Of a DNA stretch of 64,000 bases, positions 1 through 63,825 are shown one piece after another. The position numbers and the translations under genes are program-made. The stretch is from Elusimicrobia bacterium GWA2_56_46 (GTDB lineage: Bacteria > Elusimicrobiota > Elusimicrobia > Elusimicrobiales > UBA9959), in NCBI GenBank assembly GCA_001799575.1, contig MGTT01000028.1, forward strand, positions 79,274 to 143,273, written 5' to 3'. The notes beneath the pieces are model-generated. The model searched no databases. It saw only the letters and a list, made by a program, of their open reading frames with translations, and had not been told where the DNA came from. How positions within the stretch are numbered: position 1 is the first letter of the stretch; every line of letters starts with the position of its first letter.

Positions 1-1694
1 TTGACGCGCCGCTTACGGCGGAGATCTCCCTGGAGGAAGCTCTGGCGCGCGGAAAAAAAGACGGTTTTATCTGCCTGGCCCACTCCTCGGGCGCCGTCTG
101 CGCCGGTTCGGAACTGGGCGCGGCATATTTCGCCCCTGGGGAACTTAAAGGCGAAGACAAAGCCGGCCTTTCGGTGCTGGTGCAGGATGTCCGGATCTTC
201 AAGGTCGCGGCCGGCCTGAAAAGCGTTCTGCATCTCATCGATTTCGAGCCGGTCCGCGAAATGAACAATTTTTTCGAACTTGAGATCGCTCACTCGCTCC
301 TGAGCGCGCGCAAGAGCGATCTCTCCAGGCTGGTCTTTGAGAAGACCGGCGCCCTTCCGCGTGAAGAAGGTTCCAGGGAAGAGCTCCTCACCGCCGCCGG
401 GGCTATGCCTCGCCTCTACCCGGAGATAAAGAAAGAACTGGCGGCGGCCGGGATGGAAAAGGTCTATTCCGAACTGGAACTGCCGCTGATCCCCGCGATC
501 TACGCCATGGAGCGCGCCGGTTTTAAAGTGGATCTCGGCGTGCTTAAAGAGCTTTCCGCCGATTTTTCGGCCAAGCTGGCCGCCATAGAGGCGGAAGCGG
601 AGCGGCTGACCGGGCATAAGGTGAATCTCAATTCTCCCAAGCAGCTGGGCTGGCTTTTATACGAGAAATTGAATATCCAGCTGGACGACGCCCAGAAAAA
701 GATGTTTAAGACCAAGGACGGCTACTCGACCGCCGAGGAGGTGCTGACTTTCCTGAAACCGGCCCATCCAGTGATAGAAAAACTCCTGGAATTCCGCGAG
801 ATCTCGAAACTGAAGTCATCTTTCGTGGACAACCTCCTGGCCGCGGCCGACGGGGAGGGCAGGGTTCACAGCACCTTTGAACAGGCCGGCACGGCCACCG
901 GCAGGTTCTCAAGTTCGAAGCCCAATCTCCAGAATATCCCGGCGCGTTCGGCCTACGGTCAGCTGGTGCGCCGCGCTTTTTGCGCCCGCCGCGGGTTCTC
1001 TCTTATGAGCGCCGACTATTCGCAGATAGACCTGCGGGTGCTTGCCCATGTTTCAGGAGATAAAAATCTGGTTTCGGCGTTCCGCTCAAACGAAGACATA
1101 CACCTGCGCACGGCCTCTGAAGTTTTCCACGCCGCTCCGGAACTGGTCACCAGGGAAATGAGGCGCTCCGCCAAGGCTATCAATTTCGGCATCGTCTACG
1201 GCCAGACCGCCCAGGGGCTTGCCCGTGAACTGGGGATTCCCAGGCCGGAGGCGGCCAAATACATAAAGCACTATTTCGAGGTTTACTCCGGGGTTAAATC
1301 CTGGATAGACGGGACTATAGATGCCGCGAAAAAGAACGGCTGCGTGACGACTTTTACCGGCAGGCGACGGGGCGTGCCGGAGATCAACGGAGCTAACGGG
1401 AACCTGCGGGCTTTCGCGGAGCGCGTGGCTGTGAATACGCCTATACAGGGCGGTTCGGCCGATATCATAAAGAAAGCCATGATAGACATCCACGCGAAGA
1501 TAAAGGGTTCCGATAAGATCGTCCTGGTTCTGCAGGTGCACGACGAGCTGGTTTTTGAAGTAAAAGCCGGCCACGAAGCCGAAGCCGCGCGTCTGATCAG
1601 GGACGGCATGGAGAACGCTTTCAAGCTGGAAGTGCCCCTGCGCGCAGACATCAAAGCCGGCCCCAACTGGCAGGATATGGAGCCTGTTCTTTGA
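1..1694 (+). CDS. polA: DNA polymerase I, C-terminal polymerase domain. The reading frame is open from the window start (phase 3) with no stop before 1694, so the gene begins upstream of the window.
   Basis: The translation contains family-A polymerase motifs such as QIDLRVLAHVSGD, NTPIQGGSADIIK and LQVHDELVFEV. The frame is continuous from position 3. Confidence 0.93.
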   Translation, partial: DAPLTAEISLEEALARGKKDGFICLAHSSGAVCAGSELGAAYFAPGELKGEDKAGLSVLVQDVRIFKVAAGLKSVLHLIDFEPVREMNNFFELEIAHSLLSARKSDLSRLVFEKTGALPREEGSREELLTAAGAMPRLYPEIKKELAAAGMEKVYSELELPLIPAIYAMERAGFKVDLGVLKELSADFSAKLAAIEAEAERLTGHKVNLNSPKQLGWLLYEKLNIQLDDAQKKMFKTKDGYSTAEEVLTFLKPAHPVIEKLLEFREISKLKSSFVDNLLAAADGEGRVHSTFEQAGTATGRFSSSKPNLQNIPARSAYGQLVRRAFCARRGFSLMSADYSQIDLRVLAHVSGDKNLVSAFRSNEDIHLRTASEVFHAAPELVTREMRRSAKAINFGIVYGQTAQGLARELGIPRPEAAKYIKHYFEVYSGVKSWIDGTIDAAKKNGCVTTFTGRRRGVPEINGANGNLRAFAERVAVNTPIQGGSADIIKKAMIDIHAKIKGSDKIVLVLQVHDELVFEVKAGHEAEAARLIRDGMENAFKLEVPLRADIKAGPNWQDMEPVL

Positions 1695-1794
1695 ACAGGT
1701 TCCTGCCACAAACCGAATATGGAATTAATACAGATGCTTATGGAAGCGGCGCACGATAGAGCGGGGTCCTGCCGGGGGGCAACCTTTTCGCGTT
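1689..1794. repeat. Left copy of a ~105 bp direct repeat. It begins inside the polA stop codon and ends partway into the first arm of a palindromic element.
   Basis: Positions 1689-1794 (tttgaacaggtt ... atggaattaatacagatgcttatggaagcggcgcacgatagagcggggtcctgccggggg) are near-identical to 3527-3632. Confidence 0.8.
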
Positions 1795-1943
1795 TTTATA
1801 TAATATAAATATGGGTTCCAAATTAACTAAATATTCTTGCAGCCTTAACCAGGAGGAACTTGACTGGCTTCGTCTTTCTCCCGCAAAACGGATGATTGAG
1901 TCCGCGAAGCTGTGGAAGTTTTACCTGGCGATAGGAGGAAAAC

Positions 1944-2693
1944 TTGACTCTCAGCCCGATCCTCAAGGTCCTTTCAACTTTCCGAAAGCAAAAAGTTAAA
2001 TCCCTGCTTATAGGCGGGCAGGCATGTATCGTATACGGAGCCGCGGAATTCAGCCGTGATTCCGACTTTGTCGTGCTGGCTTCCCCGTCAAATCTTAAAG
2101 CGTTGGCCGGCGCATTAAAAGTGTTAAAAGCCGTTCCGGTATACTATCCCGAATTGACGATCCATTATCTGCTTAAGGGCCATGCCTGCCATTTTCGCTG
2201 TGGAGCGAGCGGGGTGGAGGGTTTGCGGGTTGATATTATGTCGAAACTGAAGGGTTGCGACGCCTTTGGGAAACTTTGGGCCCGGCGTAACCGCGTGAAA
2301 ATTTCAGGATTGGGCGCGGTAGATATAATTTCGCTTGCAGATCTTGTTCAAAGCAAAAAAACCCAGCGTGACAAGGACTGGTTTATGTTAAACCGTCTTG
2401 TGGAAAATGACATTTTTATAAATGAGGGCTCCGGTTCCGCCGCCAAAGTTAACTGGTGGCTTGCCCAATGCCGGGCGCCGGAAACGCTTGCGCGGCTTTG
2501 TTCTGATCATCCGGGACAGGCCCGCGGAGGTATCACGCGCAGGCCGCTTTTACGCGAAGCTGTGAAAAATAATTTAAAAAAGCTGTCTGAGCTGCTTAAA
2601 AAAGAAGAGGCTGCGGAAAGGGCAAAAGATTTAAGCTACTGGCTGCCATTAAAAAAAGAACTGGAAAAGCTCCGTCTGTCCCGTGAGCGATAA
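1944..2693 (+). CDS. Nucleotidyltransferase-fold protein, AbiEii/DUF1814-like (a putative type IV TA/Abi toxin). The assignment is by motif only.
   Basis: The N-terminus carries LIGGQACIVYGAAEFSRDSDFVV, which matches the hGG...(R)FSxDhDh nucleotidyltransferase signature of the AbiEii family. The ORF is 249 aa and is flanked by AT-rich DNA. Confidence 0.5.
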   Translation: MTLSPILKVLSTFRKQKVKSLLIGGQACIVYGAAEFSRDSDFVVLASPSNLKALAGALKVLKAVPVYYPELTIHYLLKGHACHFRCGASGVEGLRVDIMSKLKGCDAFGKLWARRNRVKISGLGAVDIISLADLVQSKKTQRDKDWFMLNRLVENDIFINEGSGSAAKVNWWLAQCRAPETLARLCSDHPGQARGGITRRPLLREAVKNNLKKLSELLKKEEAAERAKDLSYWLPLKKELEKLRLSRER

Positions 2694-2905
2694 GCGTTGG
2701 TGTGATCGGGTCAACGAAGCTCATATAGAGTAAAAAAGGTAGACGCTGCCTTTTCCTTAAAGCCGGCCACAAGTCGAGCGGTATTGAATTTTAACCCTTG
2801 ACGGCGCACTATATTTTGTATATACTATATGTAGCACAATAATGTAGTGCACGGATGTTTGCCGGCCATAGGCCGGATACGGCGCCGGTATGGACTGGGA
2901 GTCTC

Positions 2906-3175
2906 ATGAAAATCTCCGATTTTGAGTGGGATAGGGCCAACGAAGCTCATATTGCCAGGCACAATGTTACTCCGGCTGAGGCGGAAGAAGTTTTTCTTTC
3001 GGAATATTTTCTCCGTAAAACTCATTCAGGGCGTTACGGTCTCTATGGCCGGAGTTTTCATGGCCGCTGTTTATTTATCGTTTTCGAAAAACTTAAAGGT
3101 AATGTTGCCAGGATAATCACAGCCAGGGATATGGCGGACAAAGAGAAAATATTTTATCGGAGGGTGAAAAGATGA
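2906..3175 (+). CDS. brnT: BrnT-family toxin (DUF497 ribonuclease toxin).
   Basis: The start motif MKISDFEWDRANEAHIARHNVTPAEAEEVF is typical of BrnT/DUF497. The stop overlaps the downstream start as ATGA. Confidence 0.75.
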   Translation: MKISDFEWDRANEAHIARHNVTPAEAEEVFLSEYFLRKTHSGRYGLYGRSFHGRCLFIVFEKLKGNVARIITARDMADKEKIFYRRVKR

Positions 3176-3486
3176 AAAACCGCAAACTGCCGCATTTTAA
3201 AACAAGGGAAGAAGAGGCCGAATTCTGGGATACTCATTCCATGGCGGATTATCTGGGCGAGTTGGAATGTGCGGATGAGGTTTTTACCCTCGCGCCGTCT
3301 TTGGCGGAGAAAATCAAGGAGAGGGCAAAGACAAAGGCTGTTTCGCTAAGGCTTCCTCAATGGGAAATCGACGGGGCCAAAAGAGTCGCCAAAAAAGAGG
3401 GCGTAGGCTATCAGGTTTTAATCAATACCTGGATCGCCGAAGCTTTGAGACGTGAAGCGCACCGCACCCGCAGGGCCGGTACATAG
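3172..3486 (+). CDS. brnA: BrnA-family antitoxin (CopG/RHH-like).
   Basis: The gene is translationally coupled (ATGA) to the upstream brnT. Its size of 104 aa and its context fit BrnA, and the C-terminus is an RHH-like basic region. Confidence 0.65.
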   Translation: MKNRKLPHFKTREEEAEFWDTHSMADYLGELECADEVFTLAPSLAEKIKERAKTKAVSLRLPQWEIDGAKRVAKKEGVGYQVLINTWIAEALRREAHRTRRAGT

Positions 3487-3526
3487 CGATTAATGAATGG
3501 GAAAGGTAGTTGCTGCCTTTTTTATT

Positions 3527-3680
3527 TGAACAGGTTTAAGTCACAAGTCGAACATGGAATTGATACAGATACTTATGGAAGCGGCGCACGATAGAGCGGG
3601 GTCCTGCCGGGGGATAACCTTTTCGCGTTCCCTCGGCCGCCTGCGGGGTCGAAAAGGTTACGCCCCCGTCACCCCTTCCC
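3527..3680. repeat. Right copy of the ~105 bp direct repeat, followed by a complete palindromic hairpin element.
   Basis: Positions 3527-3632 match 1689-1794. The palindrome ggggataaccttttcg...cgaaaaggttacgcccc closes the element. Confidence 0.8.
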
Positions 3681-3888
3681 TGTTCCCTTATCCTGAGATC
3701 CTTAAAAAATATAATTGTTACCATCCAAATTATCTCTTAAATTATCCGCCCTTTAATAGTCGAGGAATGGGGGGGACGTAGCTCGGTTTCTTGATTATTT
3801 TTAATATGCTTGGATTCGCAATTATGCGCCCAGTAAAAATAGTTAGTCAACTAGTCAACAACGTCCCCGTACCCTCGGGAAGATATAA

Positions 3889-4085
3889 AATGGAGGGGGC
3901 GGCGGCGGGTTTTCTGCGCGCTCCATTTGAGGGTTTAAAACCGGAGTCTGGAGCAGTATCCCTCCGGGACGGCGAGGATGTTTGAGGGCAAAAGCTTTGT
4001 CTTTTGCCCGAGTTCCGGAGCCGGCGGAGGACTCCGGTTTTCTTCCCCGGAAACCCGAACCCGGAGCGCGCGGGAAACCCGGCGA
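3889..4085. ncRNA. Structured RNA, copy 1. It is a rod-like hairpin of ~180-195 nt with a long closing stem. The family is unassigned (6S-like is the working hypothesis) and the strand is undetermined.
   Basis: The closing helix pairs cgggttttctgcgcgctcc with ggagcgcgcgggaaacccg. An inner helix pairs ccggagtc with gactccgg, and there is a central hairpin gggcaaaag...cttttgccc. A second copy at 54805-55005 preserves these helices through compensatory changes. Confidence 0.55.
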
Positions 4086-4135
4086 CGACCCCGGACAGTG
4101 CAATCGTCTTTAACAGCGGGCATCGTATTGAGGAT

Positions 4136-4159
4136 CATTTTGCTGACGTCAGCAAAATG
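4136..4159. promoter_or_regulatory. 24 bp perfect palindrome, CATTTTGCTGACGTCAGCAAAATG, a candidate operator upstream of the rhomboid gene.
   Basis: The sequence is an exact inverted repeat centred on GACGTC. It lies ~100 bp upstream of the ATG at 4257 and ~70 bp upstream of an AT-rich -10-like stretch (tatataat). Confidence 0.35.
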
Positions 4160-4256
4160 GTGGATATTGGGAGTGGTGCGGAGCGATCCATTAAACCTCT
4201 GGCAGCTTAAACCGATTTGTGAGCATATATAATATAAAAAGATCGGATGGGCGGAG

Positions 4257-5060
4257 ATGACGCTGTCATTGCGCCCGCCCTCTTTGAATGACCTGCCGCC
4301 TGTGGCTCGGGGGGTGGTGGTGGCGTGTTTCTGCGGATGGGTGCTGGAACTGGCGTTCGGGGGGGCGCTGAACCATTATTTTGGCCTCGTGCCGGCTAAA
4401 GTTATCGGCTCCGGCTGGCTCTGGCAGCCTCTTACTTACATATTCATACACGCCGGTTTCTGGCACTTCCTCTTTAACGCCTTCATGATCTGGATGCTGG
4501 GCCCGGTAATAGAATCGGCCCTGGGTTCCAGGAAGTTCTTTGTTTATTTCCTGTTCTGCGGCGCGGCGGCGGGACTTTTTACGGTAGCCGTAAGTCCCGC
4601 CTCTCTCCGGCCCGTAATAGGCGCTTCCGGCGCCGTCTACGGGCTTATGTACGCTTTCGCCGCGCTTTATCCGGAGCAGATCGTATATATGTATTTCCTT
4701 TTCCCCATGACCGCGCGCCAACTGGTCGTCTTCCTGGCCGGTCTTTCGCTGATCCTCAGTTTCACCACCCCCAATTCCAGCGTGGCCAACTTCACCCATT
4801 TAAGCGGCCTCGCCGCTGGCTGGTTGTATTTCCACACCGCGGTGTGGCTGGAAAATAGCGCGGCAGGAAGAGTAGTGGCTAGAGGACTCGAGGGCTGGAG
4901 GACTCGCAGCGAGTCACGAGTCACGAGTCACGAAATACAAAACTCCAGAAGGGTTGACGCTATTCTCGAAAAAATTTCCAGTCAAGGCGAAGCCGCCCTT
5001 ACCTCCGCCGAGCGCCGCGAACTGGACGAATACGCCAAAACGCGCGGCGGCCGCGCGTAA
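4257..5060 (+). CDS. Rhomboid-family intramembrane serine protease.
   Basis: The protein has multiple TM helices, the rhomboid motif GASGAVYGL and a conserved His in a later TM. The C-terminal tail contains a (GAGTCAC)x3 repeat. Confidence 0.8.
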   Translation: MTLSLRPPSLNDLPPVARGVVVACFCGWVLELAFGGALNHYFGLVPAKVIGSGWLWQPLTYIFIHAGFWHFLFNAFMIWMLGPVIESALGSRKFFVYFLFCGAAAGLFTVAVSPASLRPVIGASGAVYGLMYAFAALYPEQIVYMYFLFPMTARQLVVFLAGLSLILSFTTPNSSVANFTHLSGLAAGWLYFHTAVWLENSAAGRVVARGLEGWRTRSESRVTSHEIQNSRRVDAILEKISSQGEAALTSAERRELDEYAKTRGGRA

Positions 5061-5201
5061 CAGGGCGGGTAATTACGCCGTACCATGATTGGGTGGGATT
5101 AAGATGCTATATTTTAAGGGAGCGCCGGGGATTTGATCTTAACCGGCATCCATTGCGTAAGTTTAATGGAGGGCCGCCGGCGGGTATAGTTGGAGGGGTG
5201 G

Positions 5202-5259
5202 CGGGACCATGCCTTTTCGTCCCGCAGGTTGCCGAGGGAAGCGGAAAGGCATGGTCCCG
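5202..5259. repeat. Palindromic hairpin element of the same family as 3590-3680 and 54528-54610, in inverted orientation.
   Basis: cgggaccatgccttttcg ... cggaaaggcatggtcccg forms a ~17 bp stem. The loop is approximately the reverse complement of the loop in the other copies. Confidence 0.6.
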
Positions 5260-5370
5260 ACAGGACCCCGAACTCGCAGCCGCCTGTGTCCCGACTGGGC
5301 ATCTCGCGGCTTTAAACCCAAAGTCAACTATCCCGGCGTTACATTGCGGTGAAAAGGTGAACGGGAATTT

Positions 5371-6009
5371 ATGAACATAAAAGACATATGTCGGGAATTC
5401 AGGAAGCTGAAGGGCAAGACCATTGTCGGCCTTACCGGCGCCCCCGCCTCCGGCAAAAGCGCCGTCCTCGACCGGTTCGGAAAGCTGGGCGCTTTTTGCG
5501 TTTCCACCGACGCCCTCGCAAAAGAAGTGTTGACATCCCGGGCCGGTTATAATAGAATTTCTAAGAGTTTTAGTTCCGGGGTATTCCTAAAAGACGGTTC
5601 AATCGACAGAAATAAACTTGCCAAAGAAGTTTTTTCTGACAAATCCAAAAGAAAACGGCTTGAACGCATACTTCACCCTCTAATTCTCGGCCGCGCGCTC
5701 GCTTTAATTGAAAAATCCAATGAAAAGCTGATTATCGTAGAAGTCCCGCTGCTGTTCGAAGCCGGCCTTGAAAAGTGCTTCGCTCTTACGGTATGCGTGG
5801 AGACCCCCGGCAAGCTGCGCCTCAGGCGCGCCGCCGCCAGGGGATGGAGTTCCGGAGAACTCAAGCGCCGAAGCGCGGCGCAGTTCACGGCCGGGAAAAA
5901 AGCGGCCCTGGCGGACGTACTGATAAGCAACGACGGTTCCCTGAAAGACCTTTGGAAGCGGGTGGACTGGCTTCACGGTTTTTTAAAGAACAGACCGGAG
6001 AAAAAATGA
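5371..6009 (+). CDS. coaE: Dephospho-CoA kinase.
   Basis: The P-loop is [11 protein letters not shown]. The size of 212 aa and the family fit CoaE. Confidence 0.85.
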
Positions 6010-7367
6010 CCGACAATTCCGCGGATACAAGGAGAAATCACAAGATGGAAAACAACAACAGCCAGGCCCATGGCCCGAGCAATAATCCCGCCGGCCAGCA
6101 GATGCCCAAAATGGATACCGCGATCCTCTCTAAGATGACCGTGGCGGAACTGCTCAAGATAGCCGACCAGTTCAAGCTTGAGGGCGTTTCCGGCATGCGC
6201 AAGCAGGAGCTTATCGGCAAGCTTATGGAGGCCCAGGCCAAACAGAACGGCATCGTAAAGGGCACGGGCGTGCTGGAGATCCTGCCGGACGGCTTCGGTT
6301 TTCTGCGCTCGCAGGAATACGACTACCTTTCGAGCCATGAGGACATCTATGTTTCTCCCTCCCAGATCAAGAAGCTCGGTCTCCGCAAGGGCGACGAGGT
6401 CACCGGCCTCATCAGACCGCCCAAGGAAGGCGAGAGATTCTTCGCCCTCTTACAGGTTAAAACCGTCAATGGAGTGGAAATAGAAAAGATAATCAACCGC
6501 GACCTTTTCGACAATCTGACCCCGCTGCATCCCAATAAACGTTTTGTGCTGGAAACCGCCAAGAACGAGATGACCGCGCGCGTCATAGACCTTATCTCGC
6601 CCATCGGCAAAGGCCAGCGCGCCCTTATCGTGGCCGCGCCCAAGACCGGCAAGACCATGATCCTCCAGCGCATAGCCAATTCGCTTACCACCAATCACCC
6701 CGACATCGAGCTCCTGGTTCTCCTTATCGACGAACGCCCCGAAGAAGTCACGGATATGAAGCGCTCCGTTAAAGGCACGGTGATCGCCTCCACCTTTGAC
6801 GAACCGGCTGACCGCCATGTGCAGGTGGCCGAGATCGTTCTGGAAAAAGCCAAGCGTCTGACCGAACTGAAGAAAGACGTCGTCATTCTGCTGGATTCGG
6901 TTACCAGGCTGGCCCGCGCCTATAATACCATCTCGCCCTCCAGCGGCAGGGTGCTCTCCGGCGGCCTTGAATCCACTTCCCTTCAGCGGCCCAAGCGGTT
7001 TTTCGGCGCCGCGCGCAACATCGAAGAGGGCGGATCCCTTACCATCATCGCAACCGCGCTGGTGGAAACCGGCAGCCGCATGGACGACGTCATCTTTGAA
7101 GAGTTCAAAGGCACCGGCAATTCGGAGATCTACCTGGATCGCAAACTTTCCGACCGCAGGATCTTCCCTGCCATAGACATCAATAAAACTTCCACCAGGA
7201 AAGAGGAACTGCTGATGAGCGAAGACGAGCTCAATAAGGTATGGATCCTGCGGAAAGTCCTGGCCCCGCTGTCTCCGGTGGACGCCCTGGAACTGCTCTA
7301 CACGAAGCTGGCGGCCACCAAATCGAACAAGGATTTCCTGAAATCCATGGAAATGGCGGGAATGTAA
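6006..7367 (+). CDS. rho: Transcription termination factor Rho.
   Basis: The N-terminal RNA-binding domain, the Walker A motif AAPKTGKT and the R-loop/Q-loop regions are all present. The ATG at 6006 overlaps the coaE stop. Confidence 0.93.
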
Positions 7368-7371
7368 CAGT

Positions 7372-7447
7372 AGTGGCCGGTGAATAGTGGATAGTGGTCA
7401 GTAGTTAAGAATTTTTTTGTTTGCTACTCACCACTTGTCACTGATCA
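7372..7447 (+). repeat. Tandem heptamer array (AGTGGCC GGTGAAT AGTGGAT AGTGGTC AGTAGTT) followed by an inverted partner (caccacttgtcactgatcactg). It lies downstream of rho and ~65 bp upstream of the M23 peptidase start.
   Basis: The 7-nt periodicity can be read directly. The motif recurs at 63785-63825 and, on the opposite strand, at 23522-23549. Confidence 0.7.
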
Positions 7448-18255: not shown

Positions 18256-18753
18256 ATGTACCGTTCCGACAAGTCCAATGAGCCCATGCTTTTCCCCAGG
18301 CTTTTTCACCTCGGGGCCAGGCTGGACTATTCCAACCGCTGGCTGAAACTGGCCGAGGCCATGCCGTGGGAAAAACTGGACGAACTGTACGGGAAATATT
18401 TCGCGAAGAATTCCGGCCGCCCCGCCAAAGACTCCCGGCTCATAACGGGGCTTTTGACGGTGAAGCTGGTGAAGAATCTTTCAGACGAGGAAGCCGTTAG
18501 GGAATTCATGGAGAGTCCCTACATCCAGGCTTTCTGCGGCGCCGAATATTTCTCCGTGGAAGACGTCCTCAGTCCAAGCGTCCTCTCGGAACGCCGCAAG
18601 CGTCTCGGCGAGGATTTCTTCTCTTTCTTCGATTCGGAAGTAGTCCGCCTCCTCAAAGATTCAAAAGCCTTCCGCCTTAAATCCGTCAAAGACCCCGGAA
18701 ACGCCGGTCTGATCGCCCGTCTAATAACCGCAATAAAAAACATATTCGGTTGA
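18256..18753 (+). pseudogene. Transposase N-terminal fragment (DUF772 domain of IS5/IS1182-type transposases), truncated and lacking the DDE domain.
   Basis: SRLITGLLTVKLVKNLSDEEAVREFMESPYIQAFCG matches the conserved transposase N-terminal domain. The ORF stops after ~165 aa, and the next gene is on the other strand. Confidence 0.6.
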
Positions 18754-18831
18754 TTCCCGATATAAGGTAACGCCGGGCTGGTTGGCTTTGGGTTATGCTT
18801 CGCTATCCTGCGGTTCTATACCCAAAGCTGT

Positions 18832-54432: not shown

Positions 54433-54527
54433 ACCTATATGATAGCAACAGAAAGCTAAAGAAAGCAACGGAACGCCAATCGAAGTAATGTAACGCCGAG
54501 CCAGTGGATTTTGGGTGAAGCTCCGCA

Positions 54528-54610
54528 GGATAGTAAAGCGGGGGCCTGCCGGGGTGAGGCCTTTTCGCGTTCCGTCGGCGGCCTGCCGGGTCGAAAAGGC
54601 CTCACCCCGG
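54528..54610. repeat. Palindromic hairpin element of the same family as 3590-3680.
   Basis: ggggtgaggccttttcgcgttccgtcggcggcctgccgggtcgaaaaggcctcacccc is a perfect 17 bp stem. It is preceded by a gatagtaaagcgggggcctgccgggg leader similar to the one at 3590. Confidence 0.75.
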
Positions 54611-54804
54611 CACCCCGCATAAGGCTTACGCGCTTGATGGTCGCTCGACTAAATTTCCCGGCGCTCGCCTCAACCCCAAGCCACTTATAAAACAAAGCCG
54701 CCGGTTTCCCGGCAATGGTGGTAAATGCACTGTATCTTAAAAAGGGCGGGATAATGATGTTGTGTTTTAGGTCGTAACGTGAGGAACTACAATACGCGTA
54801 AGTT

Positions 54805-55005
54805 TTAGGGAGGGGCGGCGCCGGGTTTTCTGTGCGCTCCATTCGGAGGGTTTTAAGACCGGGGTCTGGAGCGTATCCCTCCGGGACGGCGGTGAATGTT
54901 TGAGGCAAAAAACTTTGCTTTTTTGCCGAGTTCGCACGCCGACGGAAGACCCCGGTCTTCTTCTCCATAAAACCCGAACCCGGAGCGCGCGGGAAACCCG
55001 GCGCC
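54805..55005. ncRNA. Structured RNA, copy 2. It is paralogous to 3889-4085, and its helices are maintained by compensatory substitutions.
   Basis: The closing helix pairs ccgggttttctgtgcgctcc with ggagcgcgcgggaaacccgg. The inner helix pairs ccggggtc with gaccccgg, compared with ccggagtc/gactccgg in copy 1. The central hairpin is ggcaaaaaac...ttttttgcc. Confidence 0.55.
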
Positions 55006-55417
55006 GCCCCGACTCCGCTATCCTGCGGTTCGTAACTCAAAGTCAATCAGCCATGCGCAAGTTTACGAACATCCGGAGCGGCCGCAGTCGTGGCAGGTGG
55101 GGCCGGAACAGCCGGGATTCATAACTTGCATGGGAGGACTCCCAGGCGATGCCGACGCTGGCCGGTGATACGTGATGTTTTGCCGAGCCGCGAAATTAAA
55201 CTATAATCTGGAGATGTCAATGAGGACAGGTGTGGCGATGATTTTAACCGCTAATATACCTTTAGGCAATATTTATGCAACACGGAAATACTAAAGTCAG
55301 TCTGGAGGCGCGGCAATCTGGAAGCGGGGCAATTTATAGCCTTACATCCCGAACCTGAACCGCTTTACGCCTTTGCCTCTAAGCGGTTTTGCATCTATAT
55401 AACGGAGCGAATAAAAT

Positions 55418-63069: not shown

Positions 63070-63789
63070 ATGTTCGCAGAGGGTTATATCGGCGTGGCGG
63101 GTCTTATCGGCGTGGGAAAGTCCACTCTCACCATGGAGCTGGCCAAGGCCCTCAATTTCGAGCCCGTGCTTGAGGAAGTGGGCGGCAATCCCTACCTGGA
63201 AAATTTTTACGGCGACATGAAAAAATACGGAACCATCATGCAGATCTGGCTTCTGAACCACCGCTTCCGACAGCACCGGGAGTTCGTTTCCAGGATAAGT
63301 CTCGGCAAGATCCGCGGCGTGGTGCAGGACCGCACCATCTGGGAAGACACGATCTTCGCGCGCATGCTGAACCAGCATCCCGACAAGATCATAAGCGACA
63401 TGGATTATAACACCTACCTGGATCTCTTCGACAACATGGTTCTGCGCGAGCTGGTGTTTCCGCAGCTGCTGATCTTCCTGGATTGCCGCGTGGAGACGTC
63501 CATAGAACGGATAAATTCCCGCGGCCGCAACATGGAAAAAGCGATCGAAGCGGACTATCTGAAGAGTCTCCAGGAGAACTATTACCAGTTCATCGAAGAG
63601 ATGGAGTCCGCCGGCGTCAGGATCCTGCGGCTCAACTGGGAAAATTTCCAGCCGATAAGCGAAGTGGTGCGCCTCGTGAACGAGTACTCGCTTAAACCGT
63701 CCAATTTTACGAAGTGGGTCCGTCCGTTGAGGAAGATGGGGATGGAAAATAAGGCCAACCTGCCCAATAAGATCACGGTGGCTAAGTGA
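63070..63789 (+). CDS. Deoxynucleoside kinase (dGK/dCK family).
   Basis: The P-loop GLIGVGKST, an ERS-like motif and the dNK fold are present. Confidence 0.78.
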   Translation: MFAEGYIGVAGLIGVGKSTLTMELAKALNFEPVLEEVGGNPYLENFYGDMKKYGTIMQIWLLNHRFRQHREFVSRISLGKIRGVVQDRTIWEDTIFARMLNQHPDKIISDMDYNTYLDLFDNMVLRELVFPQLLIFLDCRVETSIERINSRGRNMEKAIEADYLKSLQENYYQFIEEMESAGVRILRLNWENFQPISEVVRLVNEYSLKPSNFTKWVRPLRKMGMENKANLPNKITVAK

Positions 63790-63825
63790 GAGTGGTCAGT
63801 GATTAGTGGATAGTGGTCGGTGGGG
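63785..63825 (+). repeat. Tandem heptamer array (AGTGAG AGTGGTC AGTGATT AGTGGAT AGTGGTC GGTGGGG). It overlaps the dNK stop and lies ~42 bp upstream of cmk.
   Basis: The 7-nt periodicity can be read directly, and the motif is the same as at 7372-7406. Confidence 0.7.

Follow-up and report, generated by a model that had tools for sequence, protein, structure and literature searches.

A gene-insertion hotspot between polA and a rhomboid gene in Elusimicrobia bacterium GWA2_56_46, carrying two putative toxin-antitoxin pairs

How do foreign-looking genes come to lie directly at the stop codon of a housekeeping gene, between two copies of a direct repeat, in a region without an integrase? This question is raised by the spacer between polA (DNA polymerase I) and a rhomboid protease gene in Elusimicrobia bacterium GWA2_56_46. 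We analysed a window of 64,000 nucleotides (nt) around it (contig MGTT01000028.1, positions 79,274 to 143,273, forward strand); positions below are those of the window, and L-numbers (L001, L018, L105 and so on) denote loci from other genomes compared with it. The 3' part of polA occupies 174-1694 (+; PF00476, E = 5e-144; homology to L018 and L019 up to 1692), with its TGA stop codon at 1692-1694 inside the left repeat copy. The rhomboid gene (4257-5060, +; PF01694) forms the conserved right flank. The spacer is a real but fairly ordinary gene-insertion hotspot, which here holds two pairs of the toxin-antitoxin (TA) type. Our reading of the interval from the polA stop (1694) to the rhomboid gene (4257) is that the two TA-type operons were acquired independently and that the hotspot was filled without a dedicated recombinase; we give this reading a probability of about 0.55.

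The hotspot itself is evident from the same locus in relatives. The gene order polA-rhomboid-coaE is preserved down to 50% polA identity, and the gap between the first two genes varies. It is empty in L024 (27 nt) and L104 (117 nt), and in L019 it measures 340 nt with a long-hairpin element only. Other relatives carry cargo. In L001, the closest sister lineage, whose polA is 96% identical at the amino acid (aa) level, polA is followed by a nucleotidyltransferase pair, a terminator hairpin, a hairpin element, an insertion sequence of the IS256 family and hsdR; this locus lacks both a BrnT/BrnA pair and a left repeat, and other sequence stands in place of the final four codons of polA. L107 has the order polA, element, BrnT/BrnA (87% nt identity), element, a 176-aa membrane open reading frame (ORF), inverted element and rhomboid, and the elements flanking BrnT/BrnA are direct repeats of ~340 nt with 79-85% identity. 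L106 has an intact Bro-N gene at the locus (PF02498, E = 1e-9). In L018, a 555-aa thiamine pyrophosphate (TPP) enzyme lies between perfect 47-nt repeats derived from the 3' arm of the hairpin. In L105 and L108, the repeat around the same TPP cargo comes from the end of the polA coding sequence; it measures 51-53 nt, with 86-91% identity. The ends of this cargo (AGATTTTGTATCAC...CAAATAGCCG) are identical, but the junctions on both sides differ between L018 and L105. The right-hand polA fragment of L105 has a Gly-to-Cys change and looks like a decaying relic. Overall, the spacer has received at least five kinds of cargo, usually bracketed by local duplications of varying length and position. As a side observation, the hotspot of L001 runs on at 4065-6435 into the IS256-family transposase and the type I restriction gene hsdR before the contig ends short of the rhomboid gene, and the island there may be much larger and related to defence.

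Independent assemblies of this population (GCA_001799775.1, GCA_003489595.1 and several from ENA) show the same arrangement at the polA locus, which is therefore not an assembly artefact. The composition of the inserted DNA also sets it apart. GC content between the repeats is 47.8%, versus 57.0% for the window, and GC at third codon positions is 41-56% in the cargo genes versus 60-75% in polA, rhomboid, coaE and rho. The initial annotation of this DNA had described an accessory TA-type insertion inside a housekeeping region, and had proposed a comparison of composition with the flanks and a search for empty sites in relatives. Both comparisons bear it out, with foreign composition on the one side and spacers of 27, 117 and 340 nt on the other.

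The cargo of the window is bracketed by a direct repeat of 108 nt. The left copy (1687-1794, +) and the right copy (3522-3629, +) were defined by repeat alignment; they are identical at 96 of 108 positions (89%), with starts spaced 1835 nt apart. The flanking repeats first reported are thus present, but the description "near-identical" was generous and the right copy had been placed 3-5 nt off. It also holds that the left copy includes the polA stop codon and is truncated, and that the right copy runs on into a complete hairpin (3597-3675). More precisely, the left copy is made up of the spacer next to polA and of the hairpin element's 5' arm, with a cut in the apical region; it ends at 1794, four bases beyond that arm, and a covariance model of the element gives just a partial match to it (1755-1791). 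Of the 12 mismatches, ten are concentrated in 1689-1736, and the stretch 1737-1778 is free of them. The 33-nt core of the repeat occurs exactly twice in the 64 kb, with a chance expectation of 0. The left boundary lies at the tip of a hairpin at the polA stop, recognised by reading the sequence (GAGCCTGTTC-TTT-GAACAGGTTC; 1680-1702, +; a 10-bp stem with one G-T pair), which is made of the last polA codons and the next ten bases. An identical palindrome follows polA in L105 and L107.

The make-up of the repeat bears directly on its origin. Its first ~65 nt, including the polA stop, are locus-specific spacer, and only its last ~45 nt belong to a dispersed hairpin family. Because of this locus-specific part, recombination between dispersed copies of the hairpin, which had been offered at the outset as a possible mechanism, cannot have made the repeat. 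A search for further copies had also been proposed; within the window it returned the 33-nt core at these two places only, and the hairpin element at two further sites. Rfam searches (gathering and E-value modes) and scans for transfer RNA (tRNA) and transfer-messenger RNA (tmRNA) gave just generic microRNA-hairpin models, far below thresholds. The repeat therefore does not represent a known RNA gene, nor is the island targeted to a tRNA or tmRNA gene.

The insert had been taken for one single cassette. It consists instead of two independent modules: module 1, a 62-aa ORF followed by the nucleotidyltransferase gene (1795-2696, +), and module 2, brnT and brnA (~2797-3486). Since L001 carries the nucleotidyltransferase pair without BrnT/BrnA and L107 carries BrnT/BrnA without the nucleotidyltransferase, the modules are not parts of one cassette. 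The initial annotation had further expected that these genes would not occur at this place without flanking repeats; L001 departs from this in part, with the nucleotidyltransferase pair after polA and no left repeat. Between the two modules of the window (2697-2813) stand a remnant of brnT and a third copy of the repeat. The remnant (2697-2732, +) corresponds to the brnT 5' end and follows the nucleotidyltransferase stop directly. It is identical to 2926-2952 at 24 of 27 positions, with a score of 18.5 versus 4.0 +/- 1.7 for shuffled sequences (reached by 0 of 1000). The middle repeat copy (2733-2813, +) opens with a terminator-like hairpin (2733-2754), followed by a degenerate and truncated third copy of the repeat start; its alignment score is 21 versus 9.9 +/- 1.8, reached by 0 of 500 shuffles. 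The hairpin is identical to L001 3637-3658 at 22 of 22 positions, and at 18 of 20 to 3502-3521, within its right copy, the terminator-like hairpin after brnA (3500-3521, +). A candidate brnT remnant downstream of the nucleotidyltransferase in L001 was dropped, as 260 of 1000 shuffles scored as well.

Module 1 behaves as a unit of its own. It starts with TTTTATATAAT, has a TATAAT box at 1799-1804, and was delimited by DNA identity across loci. Its limits are sharp: window 1794-2692 recurs with 83-86% DNA identity after the gene of a CsgG or a Laminin_G protein elsewhere, in copies with unrelated flanks and no flanking repeats. After polA in L001, window 1787-2696 is 95% identical. One assembly, GCA_003489595.1, holds both the polA-site and the CsgG-site copies. 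A tblastn search with the nucleotidyltransferase against plasmids and phages and a scan of IMG/VR gave no match, so there is no evidence that module 1 travels on known plasmids or phages. In L098 (3549-5015, Omnitrophota), we also observed the nucleotidyltransferase pair between PqqD-like genes in a glycosyltransferase and radical S-adenosylmethionine cluster, an unusual place for a TA system.

The larger protein of module 1 (1944-2693, +; TTG start, GGAGG at 1934-1938) has 249 aa and a predicted nucleotidyltransferase fold. It had been annotated as AbiEii-like. The predicted fold agrees with a nucleotidyltransferase, but the family assignment does not hold at the sequence level: at E <= 0.1, no Pfam, NCBIfam or PADLOC family matches the protein, PF08843/AbiEii included. 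The family to which it belongs is large and unnamed; it comprises over 3100 clusters when grouped at 90% identity and 1386 when grouped at 50%, and its hosts are Elusimicrobia, Omnitrophota, bacteria of the candidate phyla radiation (CPR) and Margulisbacteria. Among 31 homologues, there were weak matches to DUF6036 (3 members, best 8.9e-5), NTP_transf_5 and DUF2204, and none to PF08843; a literature search on DUF6036 returned nothing. A profile of these homologues gave only spurious kinase and CFTR matches against PDB sequences, and no match to MenT1. An AlphaFold2 model built on the 31 homologues (predicted local distance difference test 89, predicted template modelling score 0.81) agrees with the solved MenT fold and is closest to the Mycobacterium tuberculosis toxin MenT1. 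Invariant among the homologues are G24 G25, S37-R38-D39-S40-D41 and K138 K139, and D156 is conserved in at least 90%. These residues are candidates for the catalytic motifs of AbiEii/MenT toxins, namely GG, [S/T]-x-D-x-D, a catalytic Lys and a C-terminal Asp. The model has an extra C-terminal helical region at residues 166-248.

The smaller ORF (1811-1999, +) encodes 62 aa and overlaps the 249-aa ORF by 56 nt (1944-1999) in a different frame. It matches no Pfam, NCBIfam or PADLOC family, and its 11 database homologues are all unnamed. The absence of an AbiEi-like gene, noted from the start, holds; the 62-aa ORF had been mentioned there only as a short ORF in its place. It is a conserved partner of the nucleotidyltransferase family and not a leftover, as judged from comparison across loci. 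The ORF is conserved in L001, L002, L004, L005, L098 and L099; a partner of 62-64 aa is intact and overlaps the nucleotidyltransferase start by 50-56 nt in five distinct genomic neighbourhoods, and its conservation persists with nucleotidyltransferase identity down to 58% (L001, L002/L004, L005, L098, L099). We read it as a partner rather than a degenerate AbiEi because it is conserved in five unrelated contexts. Two further observations concern this ORF. Two frames are coding in the overlap at 1944-1999, and distant homologues conserve each of them (LDxxPDPQSPFxF versus PILKVLSTF); the ORF starts 6 nt after the TATAAT box, which suggests a leaderless transcript.

The arrangement resembles MenAT1 (Rv0078B/Rv0078A) of M. 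tuberculosis, in which a small protein likewise stands directly upstream of a protein with the nucleotidyltransferase fold. The antitoxin of that pair, MenA1, has 68 aa and no DNA-binding domain (PMC10435456), versus 62 aa here, and no other known protein offers a closer parallel to the 62-aa partner. Among the residues of MenT1 are T39, R40, D41, K137 and D152 (PMC11375011); compared by sequence position, T39/R40/D41/K137 would correspond to S37-R38-D39-x-D41 and K138 here, with [S/T]-R-D-x-D as the common motif, and D152 would correspond to D156. Both pairs are mobile and occur in variable contexts. They also differ. At the sequence level, PF08843 does not match the 249-aa protein and the family profile does not reach MenT1; MenT1 has 195-197 aa, versus 249 aa with extra C-terminal helices here; and the genes here overlap by 50-56 nt and belong to Elusimicrobia, Omnitrophota and CPR bacteria. 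Taken together, the predicted fold, the motif and the gene arrangement, rather than family membership, suggest that module 1 is a MenAT1-like TA pair. By analogy, the 249-aa enzyme would be a putative toxin that arrests growth and extends tRNA 3' ends with nucleotides, and the 62-aa protein a putative antitoxin that neutralises it. The pair may represent an undescribed and very widespread putative TA family, distantly related to MenAT1, with a conserved two-frame region of 50-56 nt. A nucleotidyltransferase family with a small overlapping partner and no Pfam model is a good candidate for a new MenT/AbiEii branch of TA systems.

Module 2 is of a more familiar kind. The brnT gene (2906-3175, +) encodes 89 aa that match PF04365 over profile positions 1-77 of 77 (E = 1e-11; 45.4 bits versus a cut-off of 34.5), and brnA (3172-3486, +) encodes 104 aa that match the antitoxin domain PF12441, of the CopG/RHH type (E = 3e-12; 47.7 bits versus 28). 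The toxin gene comes first, and the two genes overlap by ATGA (3172-3175), as in translational coupling. With both domains above their Pfam gathering scores, the BrnT/BrnA pair proposed at the start is confirmed, at the level of domains and gene order, as a putative BrnT ribonuclease toxin with its BrnA antitoxin. A promoter-like site (TTGACG-17 nt-TATACT; 2798-2826, +) lies upstream, with GTAGCAC/GTAGTGCAC repeats behind it, and L107 conserves the stretch 2797-2838 in front of its own brnTA.

We then have to ask how such modules entered the spacer. None of the genes called across the window has an integrase or recombinase Pfam family on record, in agreement with the integrase-free window of the initial annotation. 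The sole transposase-related gene is a DUF772 fragment at 18256-18753, 14.5 kb away. We propose that all three copies of the repeat (left 1687-1794, middle 2733-2813, right 3499-3675) represent the resident spacer behind polA, in which a stop-codon hairpin, a unique spacer and the hairpin element would follow each other in this order. DNA of related bacteria that already carried cargo at this place would recombine in through polA or spacer homology on one side; at its other end, illegitimate joining close to T-runs and the tips of hairpins would take place upstream of where the homology stops. Integration of a circular fragment through one crossover would have an equal outcome. Each such event would leave one donor and one resident spacer copy around the cargo and would need no recombinase encoded by the element. 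A donor and a resident copy fit better than a fresh duplication because the repeat copies differ, and differ unevenly, with 10 of 12 mismatches in the first 50 nt. No single constant crossover core was found across the independent insertions (window, L018, L105/L108, L107): in L018 and L107 the distance between the polA stop and the repeats is 80-135 nt, and no core is common to these repeats and those of the window or L105. Recombination without a dedicated recombinase fits best because there is no common core, the junctions differ for the same cargo and the copies of a repeat have usually diverged.

Several points weigh against this reading. The recombination route was read from the junction anatomy of about eight loci, with no donor, circle or excision product observed. 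If the 3' end of polA had been imported with the cargo, a drop in identity could mark it; identity to L001 is flat along the gene (85-95%), with no drop. Duplications, not deletions, border the insert in four lineages. Random illegitimate joining does not predict such a bias, unless selection acts against deletions that harm the promoter of the rhomboid gene or polA itself. The window repeat and that of L105/L108 abut at one TTCTTT, located where the polA-stop hairpin has its tip, and this shared meeting point could equally be a specific crossover site. As to the identity of the first TA-type pair, the 62-aa protein has no detected similarity to MenA1, a comparison for which no dedicated homology test was made.

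The shared TTCTTT is also what helps to keep alive the strongest of the other explanations, site-specific integration with tandem accretion. Here the polA 3' end and spacer would serve as the attachment site attB for an integrase encoded elsewhere, on a departed or outside element; the three copies of the repeat would correspond to attL, a hybrid att site and attR, and the modules would be integrase-less remnants mobilisable in cis, similar to cis-mobilisable elements (CIMEs). This would account for direct repeats that include the 3' end of a housekeeping gene and leave polA intact, and for three repeat copies that divide two cargo units, and the continuation of the L001 locus into IS256 and hsdR would leave room for a larger island. 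The repeats themselves speak against it, since lengths of 47-340 nt at 79-91% identity are unusual for att sites and those of L018 and L107, set apart from the polA stop, have no core in common with the window and L105. Moreover, neither the window nor any of the inserts of 1.8-2.6 kb contains an integrase, and the nucleotidyltransferase unit occurs at other loci without any repeats. We rate accretion as unlikely, and the next two explanations as less likely still.

If the repeat had instead been duplicated in place, structure-specific nicks on opposite strands, at the tips of the polA-stop hairpin and of the 75-nt hairpin, would have opened a 108-nt staggered break; foreign DNA would have been ligated into it, and fill-in would have left a long target-site duplication. 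Each repeat end does fall at a hairpin tip or close to one (1687-1693 on the left; 1794, four bases beyond the 5' arm, on the right), and the L018 repeat is 100% identical, as a fresh duplication should be. In the window, by contrast, the 12 differences in 108 nt, clustered in one half, would require long divergence plus local gene conversion, and the middle copy and the brnT remnant would require extra events. To our knowledge, no enzyme makes staggered insertions of 47-340 nt, which we also count against this improbable route. An integron-like array would turn the hairpin element into an attC-like site recognised by its structure, with each cargo gene and its hairpin forming a cassette moved by an integrase in trans. 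The element-cargo-element-cargo-element order in L107 and in the window has this look, TA cargo is typical of chromosomal integrons, and the hairpin ends are conserved while the variable interior stays paired: 8 of 33 pairs in the three 75-nt copies keep pairing through changes on both sides, as do 13 of 50 in a 130-156-nt form found in sister lineages. Against such an array, there is no intI in the window, conserved R''/R' (AAC...GTT) boxes are missing (copy B has none), and the cargo has its own promoters, as the promoter-like site of brnTA illustrates. Cargo junctions stand at no fixed position relative to the hairpin, and the hairpin copies at 5189-5277 and 54532-54622 stand alone between core genes with no cargo. 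An integron-like system is therefore the least probable of the explanations, very improbable indeed. The broader notion that the hairpin element behind polA is a dedicated landing pad, on which a trans-acting recombinase builds integron-like cargo arrays, seems doubtful as well, if slightly less so. Among all of these, independent acquisition by recombination without a dedicated recombinase remains our preferred reading.

The hairpin element deserves a description of its own. The complete 75-nt element at the right copy (3597-3675, +) was found by repeat search and folding and belongs to the family copy 3590-3680 (+). The other copies in the window are 54532-54622 (+), 5189-5277 (-) and the truncated left copy, and a covariance model of the 75-nt hairpin found no window copies beyond those of the repeat search. 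Present in the 64 kb as three full-length copies and a truncated one, the element is a dispersed intergenic hairpin repeat, similar to repetitive extragenic palindromes (REP), REP doublets (REPIN) or miniature inverted-repeat transposable elements (MITEs); no Rfam family matches it. Alignments A6 and A7 of the hairpin (3590-3680 and relatives) contain several G-U pairs that every copy retains on the strand as written, such as A7 columns 45-64 and 51-58 and A6 columns 4-168; on the opposite strand they would be C-A mismatches. The pattern is a hint of a structure formed on one strand, as RNA or single-stranded DNA.

The rest of the spacer, between the hairpin and the rhomboid gene, contains further repeats and remnants. 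Past the hairpin lies an AT-rich tail (3676-3894) in which the motif GGGGGGGACGTAGCTCGG near 3770-3790 resembles, by eye and without an alignment, the stretch after the hairpin in L018. It is followed by "block 2", an imperfect long hairpin of ~200 nt (3895-4092; folding energy -116 kcal/mol, z = -5.4). A second copy of block 2 lies at 54812-55010, the two window copies being 85-95% identical, and the block also occurs in the polA-rhomboid spacers of the distant relatives L019 (9651-9758, inverted) and L106 (6775-6928). No Rfam family matches block 2, which could be a MITE or a structured RNA. A Bro-N gene remnant (4105-4210, +) comes last before the rhomboid gene; its part 4105-4172 is 91% identical to L106 5903-5971.

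Some of these repeats recur further away in the window. At 54487-55044, between tmk and a gene for an 808-aa coiled-coil protein, a unit of ~560 nt brings together the second copies of the hairpin and of block 2; it is bounded by 39-nt imperfect inverted repeats (54507-54545 / 55006-55044) and has the look of a composite MITE. A shared module, AATGTAACGCCGGG...TTTGGGT, is present at 5301-5345, 18764-18827 and 54487-54531. The copy at 18764 directly follows the truncated DUF772 transposase gene, forms a small hairpin and may be the end of an insertion sequence or a MITE derivative. Another motif, AGTGGTCAGTGATTAGTGG, occurs in tandem-like runs after gene ends in the window, at 7372-7402 (after rho) and 63770-63821, and also after polA in L105 (~5003-5035) and L107 (~4503-4530).

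For the most part, the locus looks as expected of TA genes, which are mobile, foreign in composition and parked between core genes. It does provide a worked example of a hotspot in the almost entirely uncultured phylum Elusimicrobia, in which empty, singly filled and doubly filled alleles can be compared. The recurrent flanking duplications of 47-340 nt at one spacer pose a small puzzle of how cargo enters without an integrase.

Each part of the locus can be placed beside a known system. The BrnT/BrnA type II TA system was first described in Brucella abortus, and module 2 has the same domains, the same toxin-first order and the same 4-nt overlap; it differs only in that the NCBIfam equivalog model for BrnA scores 34.6 bits, below its cut-off of 60 bits. 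In AbiEii/MenT systems the antitoxin is encoded upstream of the toxin, either as AbiEi (COG5340) or as a small protein like that of MenAT1; module 1 has no AbiEi-like gene, and the conserved 62-64-aa ORF lies upstream. With respect to the insertion site, CIMEs adjoin ICESt1/ICESt3 (integrative and conjugative elements) at the 3' end of fda in Streptococcus thermophilus. The present locus is like them in its repeats at a gene 3' end, in its tandem units with an internal copy and in its units without an integrase, and it differs in that no integrase was found and in that repeat positions and lengths vary between lineages. A further parallel is given by hotspots and minimal mobile elements (MMEs), in which variable cargo between core genes is exchanged by recombination in the flanks; MMEs of Neisseria and defence hotspots in E. 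coli and Pseudomonas are examples. A simple double crossover in the flanks would not give the spacer duplications of 47-340 nt seen here. Other features are alike: the flanks are conserved (here polA and rhomboid), alleles are empty or variously filled, and the cargo is similar, here TA, hsdR, Bro-N and insertion sequence genes. The type of hotspot is already known, and the parts worth following up are the nucleotidyltransferase family and the recurrent long duplications.

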